DNA of 64,000 nt. Origin: Dipteris shenzhenensis (taxonomy: Eukaryota). Location of the stretch: the NCBI GenBank assembly GCA_047967505.1, contig CM106538.1; one strand, written 5' to 3'. The notes beneath the pieces were generated by a model that saw nothing but the letters and a program-made list of their open reading frames with translations, was not told where the DNA came from and did no database searches. Positions within the stretch are counted from its first letter, which is position 1. Every line of letters begins with the position of its first letter. The position numbers and the translations under genes were made by a program. This document shows, piece after piece, positions 6,879-58,731 of this stretch.

Positions 6879-7110
6879 AGCTAGAAGATATTTCTTTCAA
6901 AAAAAGGGAAGAAGGATATGTACCAGATTTGCATTGGCTGTCCTAGGACATGTCTGATAATCTAAAGGAATTTGAGTAATATCGGCACAGTGAGAAGTTG
7001 TCTATCGCTTGTGCCCTGAATAATACAACCAAGGGGGAAAACCATACACGACATAAGGTTTGCAAGGCTGTCATTCGGCTACAGCACTTATATCGAAAGT
7101 AGAGTAGCGA
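6783..7110 (+). pseudogene. Degenerate, truncated DYW domain of PPR copy 1
   Basis: KKAGQSWTDVGGIVHSFLVG, then one G missing relative to copy 2; corrected frame gives REEGYVPD..S*..FE*YRHSEKLSIACAL..CHSATALISKVE*; no terminal DYW tripeptide. Confidence 0.85.
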
Positions 7111-13469: not shown

Positions 13470-14800
13470 GAATGCACAACATTTCCATGCCTGGGACCAT
13501 CAGGCACAAAGAAGGGCTTGAGATAACACTTGTTGATCACCTTCTTGCCATATGGCTCATGCAGCTCTTGTACTTGTACAGACCCATTGCTATGTTCCTT
13601 GATAACTGTGTATGGACAGATCCACAATGGAAGGAACTTTTTATCCATCTGGTGGTCCAATCTATTATTAAAGCATAGCACAACATCTCCCTCAGCAAAG
13701 CGTCTTTCCCATCCCTTGTGAATCTTAGCATCCATGCGGGCCTTTTGTCGGTTCTTTTGGATCTCTGTTTGATGGAGTGCAAGGCATTGGGTTTCATCTA
13801 GCTTCTCAAGTTGTACCAACCTGGCCTCTACATGTTCATCTTCTGTCATCCTCTATTCTTGTGCTAATCTCAAGGCCGGAATCTCTATCTCTAGTGGTAA
13901 AACTGCCTCAGTACCGTACACCAACTCAAAAGGAGTGTGACCTGTAGACGTTTTATGGGTGATGTTGTAAGCCCACACGGCTTCGGTGACCTTCTGATCC
14001 CACTGGCTCCTGTTCCCTGTGGCCATTTTTCCCATGGATTTACAAAGGAGGCCATTGATCCGCTCCATTTGTCCCATGGATGCTGGATAATAGATGCTAG
14101 AAGTGCGATGATCAATACCCATGCGATCCATGAGCAACTCCACTGCTTCATTTAAGAATGGACTCCCATGGTCAGATACTATTTCCATGGGTGTCCCAAA
14201 CCTTGTGCAAATACGTTCAAATATGAAATTTGAAACTACCTTACCATTTGCAGCGGGGAGGGCAATAGCTTCAACCCACTTAGTGACATACTGACTGGCT
14301 ACCAAAAGATACTTCTTTTTGTGGGCAGTCATGGGCAGGGGCCCAACAAAATCTATTCCCCACTTATGAAACGGATGGATGGACATCATTGGGTGATGTT
14401 GCCCAGGACGCAAATCCTTCCTACCAAAGAATTGGCATGGTTCACAAGTTTTGCAATACATAGTGACATCCTTGAACAAGGTCAGCCAATAGTACCCAGC
14501 ATGTAAAATCTTCTTAGCTGTATAGTCACCGGCATAATGACCTCCACAAAATCCATCATGATAATGCTTCAATACCTTAGGTACTTCATCTGCATCAATG
14601 GCCCATCTTAGTACCCCATCCAAGCCTTGACGGTATAACACCCCATCAAAGAGAGTGTAGCGCCTACTATCTCTACGGATCTTCTTTCTCTCATAGCTAG
14701 TACTTTCTGGAGGAAAGGAGAAAGAGGTCAGAAATCTATAGATACCACCATACCATGGATCCCCAACTTCTATGGCTGCTACAAGGGTTACATCGAGGCA
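13470..14800 (-). pseudogene. Gypsy integrase (one in-frame stop near 13853)
   Basis: HHCC (HDGFCGGH..CEPCQ), WGIDFVGP, IVSDHGSPF, GQMERIN, C-terminal LWICPY..INKCYLKPF. Confidence 0.9.
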
Positions 14801-14859
14801 CTCCTCTAAACCAATCGAAGCATCCTTCAAGGTGGAACAACCCCCTTTTACAATTTTGA

Positions 14860-15190
14860 ACGAAAAATCATATTCTTGTAAAGCTACCAACCATTTGGCC
14901 AACTGGCCCATGGGATTTGGTGATTGAAGAACCTACTTTGCAAGACCATTGCTGCAAATTATGATGGACTTTCCAGCCACATAATGCTTAAATTTCTCAA
15001 TGTAGAATACCAAAGACAAGCATGCTTGTCAGCCTCAGAGTAGCGTCGTTTAGTTTCGAGCAATTGTCGAGAAGCAAATCTAACGGGATACATGAACCGA
15101 TCCTCCCCTTACTGGAGAAGAATACCTGCGAGAGTATGCTCACCAAACCCAAGATTGATATAGAAAGTCTTTGACCAATCAGGATTGCAT
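14860..15190 (-). pseudogene. Native pol RNase H, catalytically degenerate (tether-like)
   Basis: PDWSKTFYINLGFG..AGILLQ*..YPVRFASRQL..RRYSEA/QACLSLVF..KFKHYV..IIICSN..QLAKWLVALQEYDF: no TDAS, EKE or TDH acidic residues. Confidence 0.8.
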
Positions 15191-15199
15191 AGAATGGGT

Positions 15200-16100
15200 T
15201 CTGAAGCCAGAGCACTCTTGATTTGTACAAACCCATGATCACAATCCTCATCCCAAGAGAAATCAACTCCATCTTTTAATAGCATAGTCATGGGTCGCGT
15301 CAAAGCAGCATATTGATCAATGAAGCGGCGATAGTATCCTACTAGATTGACAAATGAGTATACCTGACGTTTGGTTGTTGGCGGGGGAGCTTGAGAATAG
15401 CTTCTACCTTCTCGAGGTCACGCTTGATGCCCTCGGATGAGACAATATGTCCCAGTAACCTCCCTTGAGTGGCCTAAATGGTGCATTTATCAGGGTTGAG
15501 GCTGCCATTTGCATCATTGACCTTTTGGAAGGCCAACCTAACCTTCATGATGTGCTTCTTACATGCCGAGAATATACAGAAATCATCTAAAAACACCTCC
15601 AAGAAAACCCCCAAATATGGAGCAAACACCATCTGCATGAAGCTTTGAAAGGTAGCAGGAGCATTGGTGAGGCCAAATGGCATTACTTTGAATGTAAACG
15701 TCCCCCAAGGTGTGGCAAATGTGGTTTTAAGCACATCCTCCTCAGCAATTCTTATTTGATAAAACCCGGAGTAACCATCACAGAAAGTATACATCTCATG
15801 ACCACTTACCTTCTCAAGAATGAGGTCTTGAAAGGGAAGAGGATGATGGTCCCTCTTGGTGGCTGCATTGAGTTTCTTATAGTCGATGCAGACCCGCCAC
15901 TTGTTGTTTTTCTTTGGGGTGACTACCATTGGTGAAACCCATTCAGTATTGTGAACCGGAACAATAAACCTAGCTTCTATAAGTTTCTACAACTCTGAGT
16001 GCAAAGCATCGGTCTGTAGGCGCCCTAATCTCTTATACTTCTGAGCCACAGGCTTCACATCAGAGGCTTCAGCTCTATCTTGTGCTCTATGGTAGTCACA
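15200..16100 (-). pseudogene. Gypsy reverse transcriptase
   Basis: WRVCIDYKKLN, DGYSGFYQI, MPFGLTNAPATFQ, FLDDF. Confidence 0.92.
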
Positions 16101-16335
16101 TGGCGAAGGTGGCGGTAGCTAGTTACGAAGAGGTCAGGGAAATCTTTGAACATTTCTAGGAACTCATCTTTCTCACTTGGCATGAGGTTTGGGGAAAGCA
16201 TAGATTCAAGCTATTGAGGACTAGCTGTTACCTTTTCTGCAGGTGGCAGGGTCAGAGACACCCTCATCATGTAAATTTCCTCCTCTGAGAACTCCTCCCC
16301 CCATCTAATTCTTCCATTGATTCAGACACCGAGGA

Positions 16336-17292
16336 TTAGAGAGTATCACTGTCTTGCTCCTCTTCTTCTTCTGGTTCAGTGGCACCTGGTTGCACCAAGA
16401 TCTTCTCCTTAGAAGCACCAAAAGACATGTGTCCTGTCTTCCAATAGCTAACTGCATCACTCTTTCTCAACCATGGTCTCCCGAGTATGGCTGGGTAACT
16501 CCTGCATGTATCTTTGATGTCCACTACATAGAAATTGACGGCGGTGGTCAACCCATTGACAGTGATGGGCAAATCCTCAATGACTCCCATGGTGGCGAGT
16601 CGTTGACCATCTGCTACCTTGATTCGAGTGGAGGAATGCCTTGTGCATTTCAAATTCAATTTCTTCATGATCCAGAGCACCATGATATTACATGCAGCTC
16701 CCCCATCGACACACACACTTTTGATATGGCAATTATCTATGATGACATCTACTATATATGGGTGCCGATCAATTTCTTCAGAGATAGAAGAAACCTCTCG
16801 TACCTTTCCCTTTTTCTTGCTCCTCCTTGTTGAGAGCCCTTGCTGCATCTCATGTCTCACCTTAGGGCTTAATGCTATTAGTTGAGGAAGCGTGATGCTC
16901 AAAGACCGATGAGCAAGGTCCTGAACGACCGAATAGTCCTCTTGCCCTAAGCCGATAGGAAAATCCGAGGGTGACAACTTACTCCTATGAGATATTTTAG
17001 TCTTCTTTGTTGGTGGGTTTGCCATCTCAGCATTTGAGGGCTCTGCGAAGGACACCTTCTTCCTAGGAAGGCCTGATCCACGGTTTGGACAGGGGTCCGA
17101 GGTGGTACGACTTCTTTTCCCAGGGTCAAGTATATCTACGTCAGAATCCTCAATGCCTGATTCACTTAGAAGATTCGCCCTTGGAATATTGGGGCATTCC
17201 GTGCAATAATGACCCTTCTGGTGGCACTTGTAGCACACAACATTGGCACATTCTCTTGGAGGGCGATTGGCTTGATTTCTGATGCCCACCAT
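16336..17292 (-). pseudogene. Gag C-terminal CCHC knuckle and aspartic protease
   Basis: CYKCHQKGHYCTEC; VDGGAACN; ILGRPWL. Confidence 0.88.
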
Positions 17293-17601
17293 CTCAAGCC
17301 GAAGATCATTCAGGGCCTTGGCTAGGTCATTGACTCCGAGTTCTTTAGCAGGAGGGGCCGGGGGAGTAGGAAGGAGGGGGGCTCATGGGCGAGGCTGGGG
17401 AAATCTTCCAGGCAGAGGTTGAGGATATACTCCTTGTTGAGGGTAAGCATCTATAGGAGGACCATACATTTGAGGTGGAGGCAGTGGATACATCCCTGAT
17501 GAGGGGTGGGGGTATGCCCCTGAGTTGGAGCCCCCAGGTTGTTGTTGCAAGAATTAAGGGGGTTGCAAAGGGACAATCGTCTTCTTTGAAGTGAGGTCAG
17601 A

Positions 17602-27000: not shown

Positions 27001-27638
27001 TCCAATCACATTTCCTTGACATCTAGCTCTATATGCCAAAAGAAAAGCTCATCTTGATTTCAATATAAGTCTCAAGGTCTCTAAAAGGGTCATCTTTTGT
27101 GTGAGCTTCATGCATATAGAAAATAGAGTCATTTTCAACTCAGCAGGGCTATCGTGGGGCCACTCAGTCTCAGCATTGCAATGCTTAACGTTTAGAGGTG
27201 TGAGTGGCGTGGGGAAGCGCTCTAAGCTCGCCAACTGGCACTGCGTTTCCTTAGGATAATTTTGCAGCAGGCCTGAGTCTCTGGGATTAATGGCTAGTCC
27301 GGTCGGGAGGGTGTGAAACTTCCCATACTCTCCATTATATTCCATGGATGACTTCTCTCCTTAGGCCTTCAATCATCTTGGAATGTGGGCAATTCACTTG
27401 AATCAAAGTGCTGTCCCTCCTCATCTTCTTCGCTTCAAAGCTTCAACCTTGCCTGGATATCTAATACACGAGGGCCATTGAAATATGAGTTGTTCTTGAT
27501 TTCTATTCCACAGCCTCAATTCCCATGTTTCCTCACTTTGCTAACTGCCTTCACAGGCCATGTGCCCATGCATTATTTTTTTGTCAACACCCAGCCTCCC
27601 CCAACTCCACCATACATAGGACACCTACGACCTTCTGC

Positions 27639-27723
27639 AAAAGCAGATAGATCAAGTACTGAGCGCTTATGGAAGTAGTAATTCACCGATCCCTCCCAGT
27701 CGTTTGACAATCGTAACAGCAAA
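27639..27723 (+). pseudogene. Broken exon encoding the first half of an OSB-type PDF motif, upstream of PPR copy 2
   Basis: KADRSSTERLWK**FTDPSQSFDNRNSK followed by donor-like GTACGT; homologous to 58675-58591. Confidence 0.75.
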
Positions 27724-27753
27724 GTACGTGTATCAACCAGCTGAAGTCAATCC

Positions 27754-29607
27754 ATGGAGACCGCAAACAAGGCCATGGACAGCCCCATAGCACAGCTGCT
27801 GCCAGAGCTTAGCTTAGAGGAGGTACTCGCTTCTTTGGAACGCTTGCCCCATCAGCCTCCGGTTGAAAACTTGGCAAGCATCTTGCGCAGGTGCAGAAAA
27901 CACAAAAATCCAGCGTATGCCCTGCGCTTGCATGCCTACCTGCGCAAGAGTAGGCTGGAAGCTCATAAGTCACTCGGGAATTACCTCGTCCCAATGCTCG
28001 TGGAAGTTGGAAGCATGTGTAATGCCCAGCAGGTTTTTGATAGGTTGGTTGATCGGAATGAGTATTCCTGGACTTCTCTCATCACAGGTTATATTGAATG
28101 TGGGGAGGTCGAGCATGCCTTCGTACTGCACCAAAAAATGCAGGAGGATTGTGTACATCCTAGTGGGCATACGTTCGTGGGCTTACTAAAGGCTTGTGCC
28201 AGGATGAAAGATACAAAAAGAGGCCAAGAAATACATGCTGAGATTGCGAGAAAGGGGTTGTTGGAAAGAGATCCTTTCGTCGGTAACACGTTGGTTGATA
28301 TGTATGCCAAGTGTGGCTTGCTTACAAAAGCACAGGAAGTGTTCAACAAACTTCCAGTTCGAGATGTAGTCTCTTCGAATGCACTCATTGCAGGGTATGC
28401 TGAACATGACCTTGGTCAGGATGCACTGGGCTGTTTCGAACAAATGCAATTGGCAGGTCTCTCTCCTAATGCGGTCACATTTGTTTGCAGCTTGAAAGCT
28501 TGTGGCAGCATAAGAGCAATAGACAAGGGCCAAGAAATACATGCTGAGATTGCGAGAAGGGGGGGATTGGAAAGAAATCTTTTTGTTGGGAGCACCTTGG
28601 TTGATATGTATGCCAAGTGTGGCTTTCTTGCAAAAGCACAGGAAGTGTTCGACAAACTTCCAGTTCGAGATGCGGTCTCGTGGACTGCACTTATCGCAGG
28701 GTATGCTGAACATGACCTTGGTCAGAATGCACTGAACTGTTTCGGACAAATGCAATTGGAGGGCGTCTCTCCTAATGCAGCCACATTTGTTTGCAGCTTG
28801 AAAGCTTGTGGCAGCATTGGAGCCATAGACAAGGGCCAAGAAATACATGCTGAGATTGCGAGAAAGGGGTTGTTGGAAAGAAATCCTTTTGTTGGTAGCA
28901 CCTTGCTTGATATGTATGCCAAGTGTGGCTTGCTTGCAAAAGCACAGGAAGTTTTTGAAAAACTTCCAGTTCGCAATGCGGTCTCGTGGACTGCACTTAT
29001 TGCAGGGTATGCTCAGCTAGGAGAGAGTGAAAAGGTTTTTCTTCTACTTGACAGAATGAGAGCAGAAGACATAAAACCAGATGGGGTCACATTCCTTAGC
29101 ATTCTTACTGTATGCAATCACACAGGTATGGTGGAGAAGGGCCAGACATACTTTGAGGCCATGAGCAAAGACTATGGCATCACTCCAACTATTGAGCACC
29201 ACCATTGCATGGTTGATCTCCTTTGCCGTGCAGGCCAATTAGACAAGGCAGTATTGATGATAAAGAAGATGCCGTTGAATCCTAATCTTGAATTGTGGAA
29301 TGCTGTGTTGGGTGCTTGTCGGAAGTGGGGGAATGTGGAGCTTGGAAGGTGGGCCTTTGAACATGCAATGGAATTGGATAAAAAGGATGCTGCAGCTTAT
29401 GTCTTGATGTCTAACATCTATGCTGATGCTCACATGCAGGAGGACTCTAAGCAGGTTGAGTTCATGAGATCAAAAGAAGCACAGAAGAAGCCTGGACAGA
29501 GTTGGACTGATGTCGGCGGAATTGTGCATTCAGTTTTGGTAGGGGATACAGGACAATCCCAAAGCAATTATATATATGAAAAGCTAGAAGATCTTTCTTT
29601 CAAATAA
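27754..29607 (+). CDS. PLS-class PPR protein, copy 2: L-S-(P1L1S1)x3-P2L2S2-E1E2 plus start of DYW
   Basis: 617-aa open frame, paralogous to copy 1; ends after KKPGQSWTD..KLEDLSFK at a 1-nt deletion. Confidence 0.92.
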   Translation: METANKAMDSPIAQLLPELSLEEVLASLERLPHQPPVENLASILRRCRKHKNPAYALRLHAYLRKSRLEAHKSLGNYLVPMLVEVGSMCNAQQVFDRLVDRNEYSWTSLITGYIECGEVEHAFVLHQKMQEDCVHPSGHTFVGLLKACARMKDTKRGQEIHAEIARKGLLERDPFVGNTLVDMYAKCGLLTKAQEVFNKLPVRDVVSSNALIAGYAEHDLGQDALGCFEQMQLAGLSPNAVTFVCSLKACGSIRAIDKGQEIHAEIARRGGLERNLFVGSTLVDMYAKCGFLAKAQEVFDKLPVRDAVSWTALIAGYAEHDLGQNALNCFGQMQLEGVSPNAATFVCSLKACGSIGAIDKGQEIHAEIARKGLLERNPFVGSTLLDMYAKCGLLAKAQEVFEKLPVRNAVSWTALIAGYAQLGESEKVFLLLDRMRAEDIKPDGVTFLSILTVCNHTGMVEKGQTYFEAMSKDYGITPTIEHHHCMVDLLCRAGQLDKAVLMIKKMPLNPNLELWNAVLGACRKWGNVELGRWAFEHAMELDKKDAAAYVLMSNIYADAHMQEDSKQVEFMRSKEAQKKPGQSWTDVGGIVHSVLVGDTGQSQSNYIYEKLEDLSFK

Positions 29608-29890
29608 GGGAAGAAGGATATGTGTCAAATTTGCTTTGGGGACAGGACATATCTGATAATTTAAAGGAATTTGAGTTTTGTCGGTATAGCGAGAAGCTTG
29701 TTATCGCTTGTGCCCTGATTAATACACCCAAGGGGGTATCCATACATGTAAAAAATCCTAGTGTTTGCAGAGACTCTCATTTGGCTACAGCATCTAATCC
29801 AAAGTAGATCAACAAAATATTCTTGTTAGAGATACTAATTGCTCTCATGCTTTAAAGGATGGAAGTTCTTCTTGTGGGGACTATTGGTAA
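29485..29890 (+). pseudogene. Full-length but degenerate DYW domain of PPR copy 2
   Basis: Across two frameshifts: REEGYV..CRYSEKLVIACALINTPKG..VCRDSH..ILVRDTNCSHALKDGSSSCGDYW*; HSE to YSE and CxxC to CxxS. Confidence 0.9.
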
Positions 29891-35550: not shown

Positions 35551-36029
35551 GTAGCCACAAAGTGGGGAAACCTCTTGAGTCCCTTCACAAAGTGGGGGGA
35601 CCTCGAAAAGTGTAGGCTTTTAGTATTTCTCTCTCTAATTTTTAGTCTTTCTCTCTCTAGGTCTTGATTTTGCAAGTATGATTGGATCTTTTCCAGAGAG
35701 GATTTTGGCTATCCTTGTCCTTTAAGATTCATCATACCATATTTCAAGCTCAAGATATTATGATCGGAGCTTTGCTGCTACTCTATACGCACAATGATCT
35801 CATCTTCATTGATCTAGATTGAGCTTCTAGCCCTTGTTGCTTAACAAATATGACTCTGTATGCAGAAATGCCCCATTATGTGGAAAACAATATATTTTCT
35901 TGATCTTGAGGAGCTATTTGTACTTGGTTGTACCCATTGAACCCATCCAAGAAGCTTTATACCTCTGGGTGCTTGCTTCAAGCCATGCAAAGCTTTCTTT
36001 AACCTGCAAACAAACTCAGGATGAATAGC

Positions 36030-38375
36030 AAGACATAACCTGGTGGCTGCTCCATATAGACCTCTTCTTGCAAATCACCTTGCAAGAGAGCATTCTTTAC
36101 ATCCATCTGATGTAAAGACCATCCCTTTGATGCAGCCATAGCAATGACTGCTCTTCCAATTGCCATCCTTGCAACCGGACTAAATGTTTCTTCATAATCA
36201 ATGCCATATGTATGTGCATACCCCTTGACAACTAATCTTGCCTTGTATCTATTCACAGAACCATCTGCATTGTGCTTCACCTTACAAACCCACTTGCAGC
36301 CAATTGCATTCTTATCTTTAGGCAAAGGCACCAATTCCCATGTAGCATTTGCTTCCAAGGCGTCCATTTCTTCATCCATGGCTTTCTCCCATTTTTCTTT
36401 TCCCATGGCTTGCTCAAAAGAAGTGGGTTTTGGTTCATGTATCACTTTGACCATATAGGCATAGTGAATGGCTGTAAATCTATCATATTTCAGCCTATCC
36501 ATAGGATACCTAGCTCTGGTAGACCTGCACAAAATAGGCTTACTACCAGATGCTCTCAAAACATCACTTGTCTTCCTTACTCTAGGTGTAACAATAGAAG
36601 GAATACCCAACTCATAAGGCTCTCTTCTGAGCCACTGGATTCACCATCCACATAAGAGTGATGTGCATTCACATCAACCATGGGCTGATATAATTTCTCT
36701 TTTCCTTTTTGTGATACTTGCATACCACTATCTACATTGCTTTGAGGAGATCCTCCTGATCTCAATCTGCCTGTCCATGGTGAAGTATGTGAACCACTGC
36801 TAGAGGACACTACAGGTCCACTAATATTTTGTGATTGGTGCTATGAATTTCATGCAGCATTACCATTTTGTGCATCTACATCATCAATCATATTTACTGG
36901 TTTATACTAGCTACTCATCTCATATTAGCTCACTGTAAACTTATGAGTAGAAGGGTTATATCCTTTCTGCTCCAGAGAATAACCAATAAAGATGCACTTC
37001 TCAGCTTTTGGATCGAACTTGGATCTTAACTCATCTGGCACATGAACATAGGCAATGCAACCAAAAACTTTCAAATGAGAAATATCTGGTTTCCTACTAG
37101 TATACCTCTCCTCTGGTGTCATGCCATGTATCGCTGCAATGGGAGTCCTATTCATTATGTAGACTGTTGTAGCAACTGCTTCAACCCAATAATAAAATGG
37201 CAGGTCTTTGTTGTTAAGCATGGCATGAGATACCTCTCCAATATGCCTATTTTTCCTTTCTACAAGTCCATTTTGTTGTGGGGTATAACTGCATGAATAT
37301 TGCTGCTTTATGACATGCTCCTGCAAAAAACTTGCAAACTCATTTGAGAGGTACTCTCCCCCTCCATCTAACCTTAGGCATTTTATTTACAGGCCTGTTT
37401 TTTTTTTCAACCATAGCTTTAAAAGCTTTGAAATGCCCAAACACTCCACTTTTCTTTCTCATAAAATACACCCAAACTTTTCTGCTGTATTCATCAATAA
37501 AAGTGACAAAATAATGATAGCCTCCAATAGATGCAACTTTAGTTGTCCACACATCAGAGTGGATTAATTCCAATGGCCTCTTACTCTCTTGAACATGTCT
37601 AGGAAATGGTTTCCTTGCCTGTTTTCCAAATTGACAGGCTTCACATACCTTATGCGTTTCTGCAACCTTGAAGTTAGGCAATCCTACAACAATATTTTGG
37701 GCCGGCATTAATTTAAGTCACTGTACATTAACATGACCAATGCGGTTATGCCAGATATCAATATCTGCAACTACATCGGTCCGATGTGCAAACATTGCTG
37801 CACTCAATTCAGGCATGTCCGCATCCAACGTAAACATCCTGCCCTTCTTCTCCCCTTTTGCTATCAAGCGACCTTTATTTTTCATATCCTCAACAAAGCA
37901 TCCATGAGGATTAAATATGACCTGCAAGCCCTGCTCAACCATTTAACCAATAGAAACCAGGTTCTTGGTGATCTTCGGGATATGAAATACATCAGACAGG
38001 TATTTCTTTTTTTCATCCTACACAAACAAAGGAATTTTACCAATCTGCACAATAGGATGTGCAGTATCATCACCAGTCTCCACAAATCCTGGTCTTTCCA
38101 TTTTCCTTGCATCCTGCATCCATTTTGCATGACTTGTCATGTGGTTTGACGCACCTGAGTCAACATACCACACATCATTGCTTTCTTCTACACTTGTCAT
38201 AGAATTGGTCATGTGCTGCACCATAAACAGATGCTCATTTCTGTCATCACCCTGTCTAGTAGATGATGCATAATTGCCTTGCTACAATTTTCTAGTCATG
38301 ATGTCATTCTGCTTTTTATAGCAGTCTTTAACCATATGACCCATTTAACCATAGTAGTAGCATTCAACATTGTTG
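36030..38375 (-). mobile_element. Truncated Ty1/copia gag-pol (knuckle, PR, INT, partial RT) with stops and frameshifts
   Basis: [76 protein letters not shown]. Confidence 0.93.
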
Positions 38376-41129: not shown

Positions 41130-44100
41130 ATCAAAAGTAAATCAACTCTATGAACTATGCAGTTCAAAAAAAGTAGATATCATTAAAAAACAAAGAAGAG
41201 AATCATGCATAGCATAGACTTGCATTCATTTCCATTATAAGGTCTAATCCAACATCATGAATGTTAGAATATGAAGAGCTTCCTGACTTGCCTATGTATC
41301 TATTTACTCAATCGCCCTTCTTATGCTGTGGTCTAGGAAAACTTCATAAATCCTAGAGGATACCCCCAGGTATGTATTAAGATTGAAATTGTTGAAGAGC
41401 TTCCTAAGACCTTGGTTATTCTCAACAAAAATGGTAGCACATTCAAGGAACAGCCATTGCTCTACAAGAACTTACCCAACTCTTGTTGATTCCTATGTGG
41501 TCTATCCAACCATGTTGTCAAGCACTATCCTTTGAAGAGGAATAAGCCCAAAGAGGCTCCTCCTCCTACCCAAAAGCAACCTATTGTATCAGAAAAATGG
41601 GTCCCAATGGCTCCTTCAGTGCCTGATTACACTTTGCCTGATAACACTAGACAAGAAGTACACAGCTAATGCCTCCAAGAATACTGCAGAAAGAGGGAAG
41701 GAAATAGTGCCCATTCCTTCTACTTATAAAGACTCCTTTGAACCTCTTAGATAGAAGGAGGGCTATCAAGGGATAGAATTTTGTACTTATTTCAATATAT
41801 GCACCAAATGTTGTAGCAAATAGAAAGATCATGTGGAAATCACTTGCTATTGTAGATGGCAATCGTTTTGCCTTAGGTGACTTTAAGATGGTGGAAAGGA
41901 AGAAGTACAGATGGATGGAAAAGGGTACATTAATAAGAGGTTCTGAACTTGAGGCTTGGGAAGAATTGAAGGATCAATGGTAGCTAGTAGCTGTTTGTCT
42001 AGAGGGGGATTTTAGTTGGTGCGATAGTCAAGTTGGAGATTATAGGAGAGAGGCTATTTTACTTCTCTCAAGGTCTCTTACTCAGCATAAGTTCAATGAT
42101 AACTTAGACTTTCTCGTCTCTCTCTCTTTCAGATCACAAATCAGTCTTTCTTTACTATAATTTTGGATCTGGATAAAGAGGCTCATCTTGGTTTAAAGAT
42201 GACCCAAACCTATTCACCCTAAAGAGTGTTCAAGTTATGGTAAAGATAGTTTGGGAGAATGCATTTTCTAATTGCAACAGATTCTCGGGCAGTAGCAGTA
42301 GAGAACACTAAAAGATTGCTTAAGACAGCAAGGAAGAACAGGGCCAAAATTAGAGCTCAGAGGATGGACATTATTTAGGAAAGGATTAAGGGATTAGAAG
42401 ACGAGGCCAGATTGGGGAATATAGACACACAACTGAGCTATTGTCAGCCAAAAAAGAGATTAGAAGACAAGAACAAATCTGGTTTAATGACACTAAGATA
42501 TATTATAGGGGTTGGTGGGCAGGGAAGTTAGATGGACCTACTAAAGAGACCTTCAAACTCATCAGAAGGAAGAGGGCTAATTGAGAAATTCCTTTGTTGT
42601 AGAAGACTAATAATACTTTAGTTTCTTCCAAAGAGGAGAACATAAAACTTATTCAAAGCCACTTCCAAACTCTGTTTTCTTCCTTTGTGATACCAGACGA
42701 AGAAGTACAAAGGGCTAGAGATCTACGCCAAGCAGTGAGAGAAAACTCTGTAGAGAAATTTGATATGGCTTATTTAGAGAAACCTCTCTCATTAGAAGAG
42801 CTGAAGGAAGCTGCTTCAGTAATGGCAAAAGGGAAAACTCTAGGTGAGGATGGATTGTCCATTGAATTCTACAAGGACTTTTGGGATGTGGTTGGTCCTT
42901 ATTTGCTCTTATTATGGCAAGAAAGCTTAAACAATGGAGCTTTTCCTTCACACATTGATGGGGGAATTATCAAGCTCATCCCTAAGGATGGCTCTAAAGA
43001 TGGACTTAGAAATTGGAGTCCCCTCACTATTCTTAACTGTAGTTACAAAATATTTTCCGAGGCTTTGGATCTCAGGATCCAAAAGAAGATGAAGGAATGG
43101 ATTTTATAGGAACAAAAAGGATTTATTAAAGGATGTTCTCTTCTTGAGGCCATCATTAACATTTGGGAGGGATGTGAATATGCCAAAGAAACCAATCAAG
43201 AAATATGTTTTCTCAAGGTTGATTTTGATAAAGTCTATGATAGATTAGAATGGGATTTCCTCATTCAATCCTTGTAGGACATGGGGTTAGGCCCCTCTTT
43301 GTTTCTTATGTAAAACTACTACTCACCAATGCTTCTGCTAAAATATGTGTCAATAGTGACATGAGCCCTTGTTTTCCTTTGAAGAAATCAATCAGACAAG
43401 GATATCCCCTTGCTCCTTTGCTATTTGTAATTGCTACCGATGCTCAAGGGTGGCTACTTAAAAGCCAAGTCAAGGAAGGTAACCTTAGACACATAGAGTT
43501 GATTTCTAGCAACAAACAGTTAGTTTGCCAACAGTTTGCTTATGACACAACTTTCACACCTAGAAACATAGTACAAGATGTTGAGTGCACTATGAAGTCT
43601 TTGGATATATTTTGCAAAGCCTCTGGGTCCAGAATTAGTCATTCAAAGATTGACTATGCTACTCTCAAAGGAAGAGAAAAGGAAACACTAAAAGAATTAG
43701 GATGCCACATCATTAACAAGGTACTGTTTTCAGATTACTTGGGATTCCCATGAGGTTTGAAATAACCATGAAACAAAGATGGGACTGGTTTATGCAGAGG
43801 TTTCAAAAGAAGATAGACAAATGGAGAGGCTTTCAAGCCAATCTTACAACCGTTCTCACAGCCATTGTATTTATCTTATTTCCATTTTTTATTTATCTTG
43901 TTGGGCCCCATTCAAAGCTAGACTGGATAGATTCATTAGGATTTGTAGATCCTTTGTTTGGGAGGGAACTCTAAGAATATTTAAAGCAACTATATCAAGC
44001 CTAACGGAGAAGGTGGCTTAGGAGTGATTGATATAGCTCTAGTTGCTGCTACAAAACTATCTACCACATGGGTGATTAAAGCTATTTGAGCCCATAATGT

Positions 44101-50400: not shown

Positions 50401-53400
50401 CAGAATTCTAAGGGAGTGCAACAAGTCTCTTAAACTCACCAATACTGGTAGTAATCATGAGAACTACAAGAAATGGGTTTCGATCAAGGTCTCACATGGA
50501 ACACTGGAAGTGGCAACACATCATCTTCAACAAGCTGTTGCTCTACGCAACAACTCACACTATCCCTACTCATTGCTACTCATCTCTTGCATCCACTTCT
50601 GCAATCAATCCCACGACCTCAACTATCCTTCTAACCTTGTTGTCATTATCCTTCTGATCCTCACCAAACCTATGGCTTCTTTAGCTTGTAGGATACGAGA
50701 AAGATATCCAAAGAGGAGGCAAAAGGTGGCTCTCCAACTCCATAGGCCACATCCCATTGAACGCACGATAAAGATGTTGAAGCGTAACAAGATGTTGGAC
50801 ATGGCAAATCTGCTACGGTTCAACATGTGGAGCTGTGAAGTGCAGAGGAGATACTCAACTTGTATAAAGCCGATACATGGAGTATTAGCATCCAAGCCTG
50901 ATGGGTTCATCTGGACCAGTGGTTATATGCTAAAGTTTTCAAGCTGGCAAGCTACCCACTGTGGAGTAATTTGAAGATGGTGTCTTCCACCAGCCACAGG
51001 GGTACCTCATCAGTACAGCGAAGGATGGCGAGAAGCAGCCCTTCTTTTGGTTCTTGATCGAGTATATCTGTTTGAAGAAGAGCCTCAGGTATATACCACG
51101 TAAGTTTGTGGCTAACGCCCTCACAAGTTGTGAAGACAAAGACTAGCTCGACATCTTCATTGACACCTTTTACAACAGCTCCGCGGCATCTGTGTGGCAC
51201 GCTTAGGTCATTGTAAGCTTGGGCTACACCTGTGCATGATCCGACACTGGCTAGAGTCGGGAGCTATGGTGAGGAACTCGTCGTCTTGAAGGGCCTGCTC
51301 CAAGACCCTTGCAGACCTTGACCGTTATTCCTAAAAATCTCACATCTCCTTCCTCCACTCATGCAGTGACCTCTTCCCAGACAGCCACTCTGAGCAAGCC
51401 CCTCCCACTCCAGCAACTTCCCCCATCAATCCCCAGCCTCTCTCTTCTCCACCTGGCATCCAAGCCTCGCCAACTCGACCGACAGCTACAATAGGTGACA
51501 AAGAGGCCACATCAGGCATTGATACGACCAAAGAGATGGCCACCAACACTGTTGGTGAGGAAGGGGAGAATAAAGAGCCAACGAATACTAAAAATCTAAA
51601 TGCATTGGCTCAGGAGGATGTAGGAAAATAGGTCATTCCGGAACCTGATACGAGTGACACAGAAGGACACGACAAAGAGGAAGCACAATACGAGGAGGTC
51701 CTACCACGATCCAGATGGAGCAACCAATTACTGGACCCAACGGGTAAGCAGAAAATCCTAAGGGGCTGGCTCCCACGTCCAACAAGCTCGGAAGAAGCTG
51801 CACAGCAGCAGCGGTGAGAAGGATTGCACCTGAAGCAGAAGGAGGCCCAAACCCACCTGTTGTCACCTCCAAGGCTCTAACTCTGGTATGGACATTATGC
51901 CTTTAATAGAGGTTGAAATTGTGGTGGCTCGGTTGGACCATACAGTGTCTAATCCCAGAGACGAGGCCACCTTCAGGCCCCAAGTCTAGATAAGCAAACA
52001 CAGGGTGGAGATGCCTCAATAATCCCAGCTAAATCTATCACTCTGGAGGAGGAGAAGGATGGAAAAGGAAAAACCAACGTAGGAAAGTTCCAGGAGGAGG
52101 ATGATCAGCAACACCCTACTCGAAAATTTCGCAACCATTTTCCACAAGCTACAGGCATGTACCTTGCTTGCCCCATCCTCGATATGTAGTACCAGGAGAG
52201 GGTATAAACCCCCTCTCTTACTTTGAAGACCTCTCTAGTTCGGAGGCAATTACTGAAAATTGGCAACAAGTTAGGGAGTCAGCCCTGGAGGCAGCTCGCT
52301 CAACTCACCACATTGCCAGCACATGGATCCCTCCACAGGCATTGTCATATGACGCAAAGAGCATGCACGGTATTTAAGGGAGCTCAAGAGCTACTACAAT
52401 GAAATGGTGGAGCTGCTTGCACACTGGGAAAAGAAGACAGACAACAATCTCGCCTAGCTCAACAGATAGAGCATGAGCAACTCCAGCTCGACGATGGCAC
52501 CCTATTACAACAATATAATGAGGCCATGGGTTCTCCTAAGGCATCTCGAGAAACCGTAGCCTCCAGAGGAAGCTAATGGAGCATGAGGAAGAGTGCATTA
52601 AGGTGCTAAGTGGAGTGCACACCGAGTTACAGCACAGCCGAGCGGAAAATGAAGCACTTCATCAAAGGGTATCCAAGCTTAAATGGATTCAAGCTCTCCC
52701 TCGGGACTTTGACCAACCCTTGGAGCACCCAGGTGTACCCTCTAGAAGGAAAGATACGGACGATGAGGGTGACACGAAATGATCGGGAGGACAAGCTCAA
52801 TTCTGGAGACAGATGGAATAGCTCAAAGGGAAGGTGTAGCTGATAGTTCAAGCGCTGCCATGACACGGTTGCACCTATCTTGGTCAAGGGCACTCACATT
52901 CAGGCGAGGCATGTTGGGATTATAATCTAAGGCACAGGGGGGCATAGATAGCCCAAGGATCAGTGTGTGGTTACTCATTGTGAAGAGCTCTTGGTGGACA
53001 ACGGTCATTGATTGGCCCATGCATATCTCACGTGGTGATTTGGCAGTTGGTCCAATGCATGGCTTCACACTTGGTGGCATACCTCATAGTGATTGGTGGA
53101 CTGATGTGTAGACATGCAGTGCATGGCGGTCTCGACCTGGTGAAAGGCGATGGCTGGAGGCTTCTACATAAGTTTGCAACAGCAAGCATGTTCTTTCTCT
53201 TTGTCGAGACTTTTCAGATGAGAGTCAGTCTCAGGGTTATTGCAGTTCGTAGCCAGTCCATCTCGGCTGGCTGGTAGCGTGAAATAGAGAGTCTAGGTCT
53301 TCTCAACTGAGTCGACGTCCATCTTGGTCTTGTAACTAGCAAAAAGCTTCTGTAGAGGTGAGCCAAGGTCCTGAGTCTTTGAGTCCTTTATAATAGATAT

Positions 53401-54004
53401 TTTTTGTGGTTTTACAAAATTGTAATTGCTCTGAGTTCCGAGAGTGTTGTGAAAGAGAGTTTTGATAATCTATTATCCTTTTATGTGAAGGACCAAAAAT
53501 AGAAAGAAATAAGCATGGGAGAACTCCACATGGCAAAAGGTTGTGTGGGACACTTTTGTAATGAAAGTGTTAGTATAGTGCCGCCTGGAAGACAATGCTA
53601 ACACCCGCCTCCTACTATGTCTCAGCTGCCTCCTATTTTGCCCAACTACTATAAGGTTAGTGGAGCAACTGCCCAAGAATATTTTCGTCCACATCACAGA
53701 TCTCTGTTGACCTTCCTACGATAAGTGGATTGGATCCCAACGCCAAATTCTATGCCAGTACAACACCATCTCAAATCCTGGATTGGATGTGCCCAAAACT
53801 TAGTCGAATGGTGCGTGATTGGATCGATGGCATGGGAGAGGTCTCCAGATACCCCTCCAGTCTATATCAGTGGCATATACCCTTGGCGCATGTGTTGCGA
53901 ACGTGGTAGTGTGAAGCCAAGTGGCAATTACCAGGAGTGTCTCCTGGGGGCACTGACTCACTGCCAACGAGACGACTCAACCACAGACTACCCCACCAGT
54001 CGCA

Positions 54005-55853
54005 TGTTAGAAAATTACCCAACAGAGGGTACGCACAGCGAAAGACTTATAGTAATGCCCAGGAGCTCACACAGTGTGCGTGTGGGATGTGGAATCACAA
54101 ACTTCTTAACTTAATGTGCATAATATAGATGTGCAGACTCATATCAATGGACAATGAACCAACCAGATACAAAAACCACCAAAATATATATTTCCGTCCA
54201 AAACTATGGACACAATACAAGAGAGATGGATCCAAAGTCCCACCAATGGTGTGGTCCTCTGATCTAACCACAAGGTCCTTCTCCTATTTGCTGGCTATCT
54301 CTAGACTCGAGCCTACGTGCTCCACCTCGAGCTTTTGTAGACTTTCCGTCCAGTGTGTTCTTCTCCACCTTACTGCCTGTGAATCAGCCTAGGTGGGCAG
54401 CCCCTGCCAAGCGTTGTCTACAGCACACAAGTCCCTGTTCCACTGCTCCAACCTGCTTGTGAATGGCTGCTCGAGAAGGTATGATGATCACAACACCTTG
54501 CTGCCCTAGAAGACAGCCAAGGTCCCAGTCCTTAGGGAAGTCAGTCTGCAGCACTCCTTCAACTCTCCTTTACCTCCAAGATGAGGCCAAAGGGTTGCCT
54601 TCAAGCTGCTCCTGTCTGCTCCACTTTCTGGTAGATGTTGGATATAAAATGAGGCCACAAGCCTCTCCTTTTATAGGCCCTAAGGCCTGCTTGAACCAAC
54701 CGACCAGCCAGCCCTAAATGGGCCGACTGGCTGGTATGTAGCAGCCCTAACCAACTGACCAGTTGGTTGGCTGGTTGGCTGCCTATCCAGCCCTATTCAG
54801 GGCCCTTTGCTGGCCCTTTGTTCCATGCAGGGTCCAGTCCCTTTGCTGCTGCTGTCCTGCCACCTGCCAGCCCTGCTTGCAGGCCATAGACCTGCCCATA
54901 TACTTTGCCAAGGACCCCGTCATGCAAGCGCCTCTGCCAGGCCCTTCTCCAGCGCTGTACAGTTCCGTACATTGCTGATGTCATCGTGCCTTTCCTAGGG
55001 TCCTGCTATAGTCCACTGAGTGCCTCATGCCAGGCCTGATCCAAGACACTGTGTCCCCGCCATCTTCCTGCACATGAGCTGCTCCTGATGCAGCCTTTCA
55101 TCCTTGGGATACCCCACCAACCATGAATGCTCCAGATCTGTCCCAAATCCACACATCGAGGTAATCTCTCTTTGGGCACATCTTGCCCTAGGTCTCCCTC
55201 CTCCACGCTCTCCTCATTTGGGGGCTTACAGATGGAGAGGTGACCTTTCCAACACCCCCTCTCACCGACACATCTCAGCCCAATGCCAACACGTCGATGA
55301 AGATGCTCCAGTAACTCCCTGGTTGTAGTCCTCTGGAACTTTTCAATGTCGAAATCTTTTCCTGGCTTTTCATCCAGTGGCTCCTGCTCCACCAGGTCCG
55401 GTTCCGCTTCCGCACACCATCCTGGTACACAGGTCCATCTTTGGTAGCACCTCCTGGTACCACCTCCTTCAGTCACGTTCCTGCCTCTGAACTCGAGCAA
55501 TCCAACCGTCACGATCTTCCAGTCGTCCCCCTCATAATGAGTGAACAACCTGGAGTCTTCCAGGCACCATGCTCGGAGGGTCTGTTTCAACCCGTCCTTC
55601 CTTTGGCAAGGTCTGCAACAAAAGTACATCTCCAGATAACCTAGACTGCGAACTTTAAACGCACCTGACTGAACCTGAGTTACCCTCCTCTTCTCACAAG
55701 GGCACAATCCTCCAGTCGTGGAAGTCGATTCCCAAGAGCTTCTGAATCAGGGTCGTCCTTCAGCAAGGTCCCTGCCTTCAAGCTCCCACACCAGTGAGTA
55801 CTTGGGCTCTCATACCATGTTAGAAAATTACCCAACAGAGGGTACGCACAGCG
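54005..55853 (-). mobile_element. Non-autonomous Copia-derived LTR element: 36-bp stub of 5' LTR, tRNA-Met-type PBS, ~560 bp interior, PPT, full 3' LTR (55254-54005)
   Basis: TGTTAGAAAATTACCCAACAGAGGGTACGCACAGCG at 54005-54040 and 55818-55853; PBS TGGTATGAGAGCC (55817-55805); PPT GAGAGGGGG|TGTTGG; TATAAAA at 54675-54669. Confidence 0.82.
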
Positions 55854-56137
55854 TGCGAACACGAAGATTTTGTACAACATGTATGGGTACCCCCTTGGGT
55901 GAATTAATCAGGGCACATGAGATAGCCAGCTTCTCACTGTGCCAACATAACTCAAATTCCTTTAAATTATCAGATATGTCCTGCGCGACAGCCAATACAC
56001 ATCTGGTACATATCCTTCTTCCCTTATTTTGAAAGAAAGATCTTCTAGCTTTGCATGTATATACTTGTGTAGGGAATGTCCTGTATACCCTCCAAAATTG
56101 AATGCGCAATTCCGCCCAAAATCAGTCCAACTCTGTC
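55854..56137 (-). pseudogene. Frameshifted, truncated DYW domain of PPR copy 3
   Basis: QSWTD..KLEDLSFKIREEGYVPD..LCWHSEKLAISCALINSPKGVPIHVVQNLRV, then LTR sequence. Confidence 0.88.
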
Positions 56138-58458
56138 AGCATTAACTCAACCTGCTTAGCTTCCTCCTGCATGTGAGCATCTGCATAGATGTTAGACATC
56201 AAGACATAAGCTGCAGCATCCTTTTTATCCAATTCCACTGCATGTTCGAAGGCCCACCTTCCAAGCTCCACATTCCCCCACTTCCAACAAGCACCCAACA
56301 TAGTATGCCACAAGACAGGATTAGAATTGAATGGCATCTTCTTTATCATCACTACGGCCTTGTCTAATTGGCCTGCACGGCCAAGGAGATCAACTATGCA
56401 ATTCAGGTGCTCAATAGTTGGAGTGATGCCATACTCTTTGCTCATGGCCTCAAAGTAGGTCTGGCCTTTCTCCACTAGACCTGTGTGATTGCATACAGTA
56501 AGAATACTTAGGAATGCGACCCCATCTGGTGTTATGTCTTCTGCTCTCATTCTGTCAAGCATAAGAAAAACCTTTTCACTTTCTCCTAGCTGGGCATACC
56601 CTGCGATAAGTGCAGTCCATGAGACTGCATTTTGAACTGCAAGTTTGTCGAACACTTCCTCTGCTTTTGCAAGCAAGCCACACTTTGCATACATATCAAC
56701 CAAGGTGTTACCAACAAAAGGGTCTCTTTCCAACAACCCCTTTCTAGCAATCTCAGCATGTATTTCTTGGCCCTTGTCTATGGCTCCTGTGCTGCCACAA
56801 GCTTTCAAGCTGCAAATAAATGTGACTGCATCAGGAGAGACGCCCTCCAATTGCATCTGTTCGAAACAGTTCAGTGCATCCTGGCCAAGGTCATGTTCAG
56901 CATATCCTGCAATAAGTGCATTCCAGGAGACTACATCTCGAACTGGAAGATTGTTGAACACTTCCTGTGCTTTGGCAAGCAAGCCACACTTGATATACAT
57001 ATCAACCAAGGTGTTACCAACAAAAGGATCGCTTTCGAACAACCCCTTTCTCGCAATCTCAGCATGTATTTCTTGGCCCTTGTCTATGTCTCCTATGCTG
57101 CCACAAGCTTTTAAGCTGCACATAAATGTGACTGCACTTGGAGAGACACCCTCCAATTGCATCTGTTTGAAGCAGTTCAGTGCGTCCTGACCAAGGTCAT
57201 GCTCAGCATATCCTGAGATAAGTGCATTCCACGAGGCTACATTTCGAACTGGAAGTTTGTGGAACACTTCCTGTGCTTTTGCAAGCAAGCCACACTTGGC
57301 ATACATATCAACCAAGGTGCTACCAACAAAAGGATCTCTTTCCAACAACCCCTTTCCTGCAATCTCAGCATGTATTTCTCGGCCCTTGTCTATGGCTCCT
57401 ATGCCACCACAAGCTTTCAAGCTGCAAATAAATGTGACCGCACTTGGAGAGACACCCTCCAATTGCATCTGTTCGAAACAGTTCAGTGCGTCCTGACCAA
57501 GGTCATGTTCAGCATACCCTGCAATAAGTGCATTCCAGGAGACTGCATCTCGAACTGGAAGTTTTTCAAACACTTCCTGTGCTTTTGCAAGCAAACCACA
57601 CTTGGCATACATATCAACCAAGGAGCTACCAACAAAAGGATTTATTTCCAACAACCCCTTTCCTGCAATCTCAGCATGTATTTCTTGGCCCTTGTCTATG
57701 GCTCTTATGCTGCCACAAGCTTTCAAGCTGCAAACAAATGTGACCGCACTTGGAGAGACTCCCTCCAATTGCATTTGTTCGAAGCAGTTTAGTGCATCCT
57801 GACCAAGGTGATGTTCAGCATACCCTGCGATAAGTGCATTCCAAGAGACTACATTTCGAACTGGAAGCTTGTCGAACACTTCCTGTGCTTTTGCAAGCAA
57901 GCCACACTTGGCATACATATCAACCAAGGTGCTACCAATAAAAGGATTTCGTTCCAACAACCCTGTTCTTGTAATCTCAGCATGTATTTCTCGTCCTCGT
58001 TCTGTATCTTTCAGCCGGGCACAAGCCTTGAGTAAGGCCACGAACGTATACCCACTAGGATGTACACAATCTTCCTGCATTTTCTGGTGCAGTACGAAGG
58101 CATGCTGTGACTCGCCACATTCAAGATAACCTGTAATGAGAGAAGTCCAGGAATACTCATTCCGATCAGCCAACCTATCAAAAGCCTGCTGGGCATCACA
58201 CATGCTTCCAACTCCCACCAACATTGGAACGACGTAGTTCCCGAGTGACTCATGAGCTTCCAGCCCACTTTTGCGCAGGTAATGATGCAACCGCAGGGCA
58301 TGCGCTGGATTTTTGTGTCTTCTGCACTTGCGCAAGATGCATGTCAAGTTTTCAACCGAAGGTGGATGGGGCATGCGTTCCAAAGAAGTGAGTGCCTCCT
58401 CTAAGCTAAGCTCTGGCAGTTGTACTATGGGGCTGTGCATGGCCTTTGCAGTCTCCAT
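56122..58458 (-). CDS. PLS-class PPR protein, copy 3: L-S-(P1L1S1)x5-P2L2S2-E1E2
   Basis: 778-aa open frame paralogous to copies 1 and 2; a deletion at the E2/PG-box junction shifts the frame to a stop; may have an upstream exon from 58731. Confidence 0.92.
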   Translation of the reverse strand: METAKAMHSPIVQLPELSLEEALTSLERMPHPPSVENLTCILRKCRRHKNPAHALRLHHYLRKSGLEAHESLGNYVVPMLVGVGSMCDAQQAFDRLADRNEYSWTSLITGYLECGESQHAFVLHQKMQEDCVHPSGYTFVALLKACARLKDTERGREIHAEITRTGLLERNPFIGSTLVDMYAKCGLLAKAQEVFDKLPVRNVVSWNALIAGYAEHHLGQDALNCFEQMQLEGVSPSAVTFVCSLKACGSIRAIDKGQEIHAEIAGKGLLEINPFVGSSLVDMYAKCGLLAKAQEVFEKLPVRDAVSWNALIAGYAEHDLGQDALNCFEQMQLEGVSPSAVTFICSLKACGGIGAIDKGREIHAEIAGKGLLERDPFVGSTLVDMYAKCGLLAKAQEVFHKLPVRNVASWNALISGYAEHDLGQDALNCFKQMQLEGVSPSAVTFMCSLKACGSIGDIDKGQEIHAEIARKGLFESDPFVGNTLVDMYIKCGLLAKAQEVFNNLPVRDVVSWNALIAGYAEHDLGQDALNCFEQMQLEGVSPDAVTFICSLKACGSTGAIDKGQEIHAEIARKGLLERDPFVGNTLVDMYAKCGLLAKAEEVFDKLAVQNAVSWTALIAGYAQLGESEKVFLMLDRMRAEDITPDGVAFLSILTVCNHTGLVEKGQTYFEAMSKEYGITPTIEHLNCIVDLLGRAGQLDKAVVMIKKMPFNSNPVLWHTMLGACWKWGNVELGRWAFEHAVELDKKDAAAYVLMSNIYADAHMQEEAKQVELMLTELD

Positions 58459-58731
58459 TTTCTGGAGCGTGCCTTTAACCCAACTTGGATTGTACCAGCC
58501 GTCTATACATAGCGACTCCTGGGTGAGTTCCTGCTTGAAATCTGGGGTTCTGAAGACTCGTCAGAATTTAATTTCCCGTCGTACATGTACGCTGGTGTTT
58601 CGATTGTCAAACCAACCGGAGGGATCGCTGAAATACTCCTTCCATAAGCGGTCGGTACGTGATCTATCTGCTTTTCTTGTATAGTACAGGCTGACGTTTG
58701 AAGGCGGAGAAAGAACTAAAGCATTTGCCAT
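58459..58731 (-). pseudogene. Upstream coding region of PPR copy 3 encoding an OSB-type PDF motif, split by a short putative intron
   Basis: MANALV..RLWKEYFSDPSGWFDNRNTS | GTACAT..TTCAG | ..PDFKQELTQESLCIDGWYNPSWVKGTLQK, the second part in frame with METAK. Confidence 0.75.

Follow-up and report, generated by a model that had tools for sequence, protein, structure and literature searches.

A relic OSB-type PDF motif upstream of a PLS-class PPR gene copy in Dipteris shenzhenensis, very probably the decayed N-terminus of an old subfamily of predicted organellar RNA-editing factors

The DNA analyzed here, a stretch of 64,000 nucleotides from contig CM106538.1 of the Dipteris shenzhenensis assembly GCA_047967505.1 (hereafter the window), is plant nuclear DNA with three PLS-class PPR paralogues amid retroelement remains. 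Copy 1, which has the longest array, occupies positions 3330-6878 of the plus strand, or 3330-7101 when its DYW remnant, which lies in other frames and contains stops, is included. Copy 2 is also on the plus strand (27745-29607; 27745-29887 with a DYW remnant that runs through three frames with stops and ends in ...SSCGDYW). Copy 3 is on the minus strand (56122-58458) and consists of a 778-aa ORF, read from its ATG, that contains a PLS-type array and part of an E motif. This ORF terminates too early, within the E region and at an earlier point than in copies 1 and 2. The Pfam matches in copy 3 were PPR_2 (E 4.2e-85), PPR (E 1.1e-80) and E_motif (40.4 bits; cut-off 27.3), and the Pfam scan of its read-through protein gave no DYW match. 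Behind the stop, a decayed E2/DYW remnant was recognized on the same strand (55813-56121), in which HSEKLA is readable, the CxxCH region is lost and a further stop is present. No copy has an intact in-frame DYW deaminase (HxE, CxxCH and a C-terminal DYW), and all three tails are broken.

Several other features were seen around the PPR copies. Retroelement remains lie between them at 13853-17382 (minus strand), 35999-37386 (minus) and 43244-43753 (plus); their Pfam matches comprise an integrase with RVT_1, an RVT_2 reverse transcriptase with a retroviral SH3-like domain, and one weak RVT_1 of 27.4 bits, below the cut-off. Long ORFs of 150-276 codons run antisense to each PPR array, at 4446-5666 (minus), 28186-29016 (minus) and 56623-57792 (plus); they share the repeat period of the arrays and look like a by-product of the repeats rather than genes. 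Just behind the DYW remnant of copy 3 is a 246-codon open frame (55006-55746, minus strand) without a Pfam match, and GC content rises to 0.495 in 52001-56000. The stretch 55006-55746 is probably of foreign origin and has truncated copy 3 at its end.

Immediately upstream of copy 3, at 58462-58668 on the minus strand, profile and phmmer searches located a relic OSB-type PDF motif, both halves of which are complete but interrupted. The frame opens at an ATG at 58731 (MANALV...), with a stop codon 15 codons further upstream, and the in-frame leader up to the motif covers 58669-58731. Read from 58731, this frame comprises a 27-residue leader, then ...LWKEYFSDPSGWFDNRNTS, then 10 codons ending in TGA. 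The first half of the motif (58591-58668) corresponds to a moss-type exon, described below, that ends after the K of DxRxxK. It is followed in the motif loop by an extra 30 nt, or 10 codons (58561-58590), beginning with GTACAT and ending with the TGA (58561-58563), which is the sole stop between the ATG at 58731 and the PPR ORF. The second half (58462-58560; RVFRTPDFKQE...NPSWVKGTLQ) is contiguous with that ORF: after the TGA, RVFRTPDFKQELTQESLCIDGWYNPSWVKGTLQK continues directly into METAKAMHS... of the copy 3 ORF at 56122-58458, and the stop-to-stop ORF 56122-58560 already holds it. The original prediction had placed the second half in frame with the PPR ORF; this is correct, and its wording can be refined, since the first half shares the same frame and the whole PDF motif is therefore in frame with copy 3 (ATG at 58458). 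From DNR to PDF the window motif has a spacing of 18 residues, including the TGA, against a canonical and uninterrupted spacing of 8, and two near-invariant elements are altered, LW to LC and KHK to KQE (H to Q).

The read-through peptide, with X at the stop, was compared by phmmer with 1.84 billion representative proteins, which gave 80 matches at E <= 0.001, the best at E 3.9e-16. A profile made only from OSB proteins (23 PDF motifs from 10 SSB-domain proteins) was run over the window in six frames; it scored 45.7 bits at copy 3 (model positions 4-61) and 14.5 bits at copy 2, and the third-best score in the 127,996 six-frame residues was -3.2 bits. The window motif is similar to the PDF motifs of SSB/OB-domain OSB proteins across its length of about 55 residues. 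Against a profile of 16 PPR-linked motifs it scored 67.3 bits, and against one of 33 OSB-linked motifs 58.4 bits; intact motifs score 56-107 bits on these two profiles, and intact PPR-linked members 90-104 bits on the PPR-linked one. Judged by these scores, the window motif is a genuine, somewhat eroded PDF motif that is nearer to the PPR-linked kind. The claim that a PDF motif lies upstream of copy 3 is borne out by the phmmer E value and by the profile scores of 45.7-67.3 bits. A Pfam scan of the 91-aa read-through motif peptide returned no family at E <= 10, and the only match in a PDB sequence search was a TBC-domain chain at E 0.27. An AlphaFold2 model of the PDF motif (P0020 with alignment A2) had a pLDDT of 80.1. 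Foldseek comparison of this model with the PDB gave three rows, all with E >= 9, and no solved look-alike; the best Z in a VIA-align comparison with 48,161 chains was 3.0. These comparisons yield no fold assignment and are silent on the novelty of the fold.

Copy 2 also retains part of the motif (27604-27732, plus strand): the first half is present, with two adjacent stops and then GTACGT, and the second half is deleted. This first half was detected by tblastn at E 2e-9, and its DNA is 84% identical to that of copy 3 over 94 nt. In both copies the letters that follow DNRN(T/S)(S/K) are GTAC(A/G)TGTA, and DNA alignment and tblastn agree with the earlier observation that copy 2 has a first half with stops and a GT at the same phase-0 position. 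Upstream of copy 1, neither DNA alignment nor the six-frame profile scan found any PDF trace. With half a motif in copy 2 and none in copy 1, the three tandem paralogues record a stepwise loss of the motif.

All 80 phmmer matches were scanned with Pfam. Sixteen of them have an SSB domain (PF00436; three of these matches fall short of the curated cut-off) with one or more PDF motifs behind it, the arrangement that reviews give for OSB proteins; nine have PPR domains, and 55 have neither, many of the latter being short fragments or motif-repeat proteins. Proteins that combine PDF and PPR include named fusions of Diphasiastrum complanatum (P0017, P0047) and Sphagnum (P0054, P0105) and two gene models of the fern Adiantum capillus-veneris (P0008, P0066). 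From the transcriptome of Pteridium aquilinum, single ORFs carry the PDF motif in frame with a Pfam PPR match (P0035, P0053), and a further ORF (P0018) has the motif without any Pfam match but continues into a PPR-type leader. A 3873-nt contig encodes a 1154-aa ORF (P0129) in which the motif spans residues 53-107 and is accompanied by a PLS array, an E motif and a match to DYW_deaminase (E 1.2e-19). This protein has HSIK instead of the catalytic HSE, with CxxCH kept, and may be an inactive or altered deaminase, judging by these residues.

A profile search for longer proteins, in which 8000 candidates were scored, gave 15 matches; seven of these have PPR domains, and four of the seven also have DYW. 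The complete PDF-PLS-E-DYW arrangement is found in the moss Ceratodon purpureus (P0142), the liverwort Calypogeia fissa (P0140) and the lycophyte Diphasiastrum (P0137, P0138). These four, out of 23 proteins checked, have both HSE[KR]xA and CxxCH, and three of the four end in DYW. The flowering-plant matches (Amborella, Malus and Daucus, the last named OSB4) are without PPR domains; no PDF-PPR fusion of a seed plant was found among the 8000 candidates scored, which is weak evidence of absence. Weak word-indexed searches yielded three matches for the N-terminus of copy 3 and, for the motif region of P0129, only P0129 itself among four candidates. The intact proteins with HSE and CxxCH in moss, liverwort and lycophyte support the proposal of an ancestral PDF-PPR-E-DYW fusion. 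On the two points by which the original prediction was to be judged beforehand, the PDF profile match is significant, and the fern single ORFs (P0035, P0053, P0018) join the motif to PPR sequence.

A maximum-likelihood tree was constructed from 50 motifs and 57 columns; many of its forks are unresolved. The window motif groups with fern PPR-linked motifs, with weak support (80/63). Only 4 changes between PPR-linked and OSB-linked labels are needed on this tree, compared with 13.8 when labels were shuffled, and none of 500 shuffles was as low. A tree with all PPR-linked motifs in one clade was not rejected (p-AU 0.381), although a single origin is not shown by the tree. This pattern would fit one or a few old PDF-PPR fusions.

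The position of the extra 30 nt was compared with gene structures at moss-type loci. When metagenome contigs were scanned with a Sphagnum protein, 80 loci were retained from 283 related stretches; since one search pattern out of six falls in the motif, the sample is biased to motif-bearing genes. Among these 80 moss-type loci, the motif is whole in one frame in 24, in two pieces in 38, partial in 6 and absent in 12, mostly at contig ends. Between the two pieces, every one of the 38 split loci has a GT-AG stretch of 124-316 nt in phase 0, which begins exactly after the K of DxRxxK and ends five codons before PDF; the 24 whole-motif loci are without an intron at this site. When loci with at least 95% identity were grouped, 43 groups were obtained, of which 18 contained whole motifs only, 15 split motifs only, 1 both and 9 neither. 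Contig L001 equals L003 (100% over 2419 nt) minus three GT-AG stretches, one of them the motif intron, with the junction reading EK|VNAR. This difference is, from the contigs compared, the signature of a spliced transcript or processed copy. The other two stretches (about 194 and 550 nt) lie upstream of the motif intron in the Sphagnum-type PDF-PPR gene and are absent from L001, as seen in a comparison of L003:1824-3257 with L001:1-554. PPR genes are mostly intronless, and such GT-AG stretches in the Sphagnum-type gene are unusual. On another contig, some 5.5 kb downstream of the PDF-PPR gene, there is a second match to the first half of the motif (L008:8880-8951; 25.2 bits), perhaps a neighbouring paralogue.

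In copy 3 the serine codon at 58593-58591 is followed by GTACAT from 58590, and 58560 is the position five codons before PDF. The moss-type intron site is therefore filled to the base by the extra 30 nt (58590-58561), with the TGA as their last triplet and no acceptor. The letters of copy 3 at this site, for comparison with intron 5' ends, are GTACATGTACG. The 30 nt are an insertion relative to all 11 aligned intact relatives and to the OSB-only profile; in P0057, the nearest relative, a shorter in-frame coding stretch occupies the same loop position. We think it probable, from this positional agreement, that the extra 30 nt are the conserved phase-0 intron collapsed by deletion; the intron evidence is moss-type, not fern. 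The GT at phase 0 that had been pointed out earlier is indeed at the exact site of a spliced moss-type intron, but no usable intron is left in the window. Alternatively, the extra 30 nt may have no relation to an intron and may have arisen in this fern subfamily as a plain in-frame insertion into the loop, which later gained a stop. The shorter open stretch in P0057 would agree with this, as would 4-residue insertions in the same loop of two OSB-type motifs and PDF-domain insertions reported at positions 19-30 (PMC13393729, in the text available). However, the stretch begins at the exact codon boundary at which the donor GT stands in 38 of 38 split moss-type loci, it ends five codons before PDF, which is the moss-type acceptor position, and its GTAC(A/G)T start is common to both window copies. 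With these coincidences in mind we regard a simple loop insertion as possible but rather unlikely.

The local gene is dead or truncated, and the window copy is a relic and not a hidden live gene. The pseudogene status of copy 3 is based on the breakage of both its PDF and DYW ends, although the array itself is still an open frame of 778 codons. It might be argued from this open frame that copy 3 still yields a functional, shortened PLS-E protein by translation from the ATG at 58458, with the PDF relic in its 5' leader. The methionine concerned (METxxAMxS) is kept in all three copies and in P0057, and E-class factors without a DYW domain occur in seed plants. Yet the ORF stops within the E region, before copies 1 and 2 do, a start at this methionine would presumably lose any targeting sequence that stood before the motif, and all three copies sit in retroelement debris. 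We therefore consider a functional short protein to be distinctly unlikely.

Sequencing runs were also screened, which gave 15 rows, each with at most 0.12 of the sampled words. Contigs of four runs contained paralogue-level pieces that are 85-95% alike, none of them specific to the copy 3 locus. In none of these paralogue-level, not locus-specific, contigs had 58590-58561 been spliced out. Depth in these paralogue-level contigs dropped to 1-13 over 58566-58602, with the flanks covered, in all four runs, and in two contigs, likewise at paralogue level, unrelated letters replace 58547-58622 or 58551-58646.

It is very improbable that copy 3 is live and that its TGA is spliced out to give a full PDF-PPR protein from a hidden exon, even though a phase-0 GT stands at the homologous donor site. 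In copy 3, 187 GT/GC..AG pairs span the stop and 67 of them keep the frame; only one in-frame pair retains both WFDNR and PDFK, and this is a GC-AG stretch of 36 nt, far below the shortest plant introns of about 60 nt. Every in-frame option with a GT donor from 58590 removes the PDFK core, and the DYW end is also broken. None of the 67 in-frame GT/GC-AG candidates is usable as a working intron across the TGA. The idea of a hidden live gene was consequently abandoned, the PDF and DYW parts being broken and no usable intron being available.

A further alternative is that part of an OSB gene came by chance to lie beside a PPR gene in this lineage, which would make the juxtaposition recent and local. 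The best phmmer matches are indeed SSB-domain proteins. However, the 19 OSB-type proteins with tblastn matches in the window reached it, at E <= 0.01, only via their PDF motifs, at the two sites; no OB/SSB part matched, and one further protein (P0141) had no match at all. The joint is common to copies 2 and 3, and the order of motif, leader and array is colinear with fern, lycophyte and moss fusion proteins. In BLASTP comparisons, single segments linked the window read-through to P0057 (65% over 206 aa), to Pteridium P0035 (50% over 268 aa) and to Ceratodon P0142 (35.6% over 888 aa, extending from the motif at query residue 27 to the E domain at 869). An alignment of N-termini, together with BLASTP, places the window PDF motif N-terminal to and colinear with the PLS array, as in P0142, P0137, P0140, P0129 and P0035. 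From this single-segment colinearity we infer that the local PDF-PPR joint was inherited and is not accidental. Assembly or annotation chimeras are unlikely as a source of the fusions, because each is an uninterrupted ORF and the contigs, genomic as well as transcript, are independent of one another. Recent juxtaposition is thus highly improbable. Chance likeness of non-coding DNA to a PDF motif, which has nothing in its favor beyond the shortness of the motif, is of negligible probability and is refuted by phmmer (E 3.9e-16 in 1.84 billion proteins), by 2000 shuffles of the window peptide, which reached at most 14.8 bits on the PPR-linked profile, where the motif itself scores 67.3, and 10.1 bits on the OSB-linked profile, and by the six-frame scan, with just two matches in the window, each directly upstream of a PPR copy.

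The inherited PDF-PPR joint can be compared with several known systems. OSB proteins have the same motif of about 55 residues, W..(Y/F)F.(D/N)P..WWDNR..K.NP..PDFKHK....LW.....P.WV, in one or several copies, and its loop is reported to tolerate insertions (PMC13393729, in the text available). In OSB proteins, however, the motif lies on the C-terminal side of an SSB-like OB fold and a PPR array is lacking, whereas here it is N-terminal to a PLS-PPR array; no PF00436 match was found in the copy 3 read-through protein, and no OB part was found in the window by tblastn with OSB proteins. For ssDNA binding by AtOSB1 the PDF motif suffices, and both AtOSB1 and AtOSB2 bind ssDNA in preference to dsDNA or RNA, according to the available parts of PMC6963530, PMC4166229 and PMC6451138. 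A review, as far as its accessible text goes, describes the PDF motif as conserved only in green plants (PMC4166229). Among the proteins collected here, tandem arrays of up to nine PDF copies were seen in the dinoflagellate Effrenium voratum and two copies in one protein of Yihiella yeosuensis (P0005, P0122-P0128 and P0010).

PLS-E-DYW editing factors such as Physcomitrium PPR56 share with the intact relatives the PLS array, E and DYW with HSE and CxxCH, and the window copies are decayed members of this class. The difference is at the N-terminus, where nothing but a targeting peptide precedes the array in the described PLS-E-DYW architecture. Additional domains listed for Physcomitrium PPR proteins are RRM, LAGLIDADG, SMR, NYN, CBS and SAP, and PDF is absent from that list in the part of the source available (PMC9459714). 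The PPR56 constructs used in E. coli assays are described as keeping no more than 14 residues ahead of the first PPR (PMC10482289, available portion); a truncation of this type would remove any PDF-like N-terminal motif. PPR4-type proteins likewise have a general single-strand nucleic-acid-binding module N-terminal to the PPR array (PMC9459714, same portion), but this module is an RRM rather than PDF, the array is P-class and not PLS, the process is splicing and not editing, and there is no deaminase.

In the main texts searched, with the founding OSB paper covered through reviews, no report linking PDF motifs to PPR proteins was found. Mentions of PPR in the one review that looked relevant concern RNA polymerases, another paper was unrelated, and the searches yielded nothing that combines organellar single-stranded DNA with DYW and nothing relevant on WWDNR or PDFKHK. 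The accessible text of a 2026 paper on the OSB family does not mention PPR (PMC13393729). The main text of a 2026 kingdom-wide survey of editing-factor fusions contains no occurrence of 'OSB' or 'single-stranded' (PMC13386178). Domain surveys use Pfam-type models, and the window motif peptide matched no Pfam family, which may explain why the motif is missing from that survey. The statement in the original prediction that the architecture is not a characterized one agrees with these searches. We conclude with moderate confidence that the PDF-PPR architecture is unpublished; it is old, real and apparently undescribed.

Taken with the intact relatives, the stretch upstream of copy 3 is very probably the decayed N-terminal PDF motif of an old, conserved and unnamed subfamily of plant organellar RNA-editing factors. 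Its members are predicted to begin with a presumed transit peptide, followed by between one and three PDF motifs of the OSB type and a linker, and then by the PLS-class PPR array, E1/E2 and the DYW cytidine deaminase. In such factors the site on the RNA is chosen by the PPR array, which reads the stretch upstream of the target, and the cytidine is deaminated by the DYW domain. The last PPR is reported to face position -4 (PMC10482289, available portion), and an N-terminal module would therefore sit at the 5' end of the bound RNA. By analogy with OSB proteins, the most likely role of the PDF motif in the fusion would be that of an extra, sequence-unspecific single-strand nucleic-acid clamp on the 5' side of the RNA, or of a nucleoid tether. 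That key PDF residues are kept before PPR arrays from liverwort to ferns argues for a retained function, as far as conservation can indicate; the ssDNA-over-RNA preference reported for OSB proteins speaks against a simple RNA-clamp role. Tethering to nucleoids or R-loops and deamination of ssDNA, as put forward in the original prediction, are hypothetical. A bolder proposal, to which we give limited credence, is that PDF was an ancient integral module of DYW factors in non-seed plants, a second nucleic-acid-binding site holding the factor on nucleoid ssDNA or nascent RNA and so coupling editing to transcription; its intron-bearing 5' part would have come from an OSB-like gene, the module would later have decayed in some fern lineages, this window being an example, and other helpers would perhaps serve in seed plants.

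C-to-U editing in plant organelles has PLS-DYW proteins at its core, and these are now being made into programmable RNA editors. The PDF motif precedes editing factors in a liverwort, mosses, a lycophyte and ferns, as well as dozens of paralogues on moss-type contigs. N-terminal regions of PLS-DYW proteins are described as routinely removed in heterologous assays (PMC10482289, available portion). The architecture raises the questions of whether PDF adds affinity or localization to these factors and whether PDF motifs bind RNA too. The phase-0 intron within the motif provides a datable marker for the origin and the loss of the fusion.
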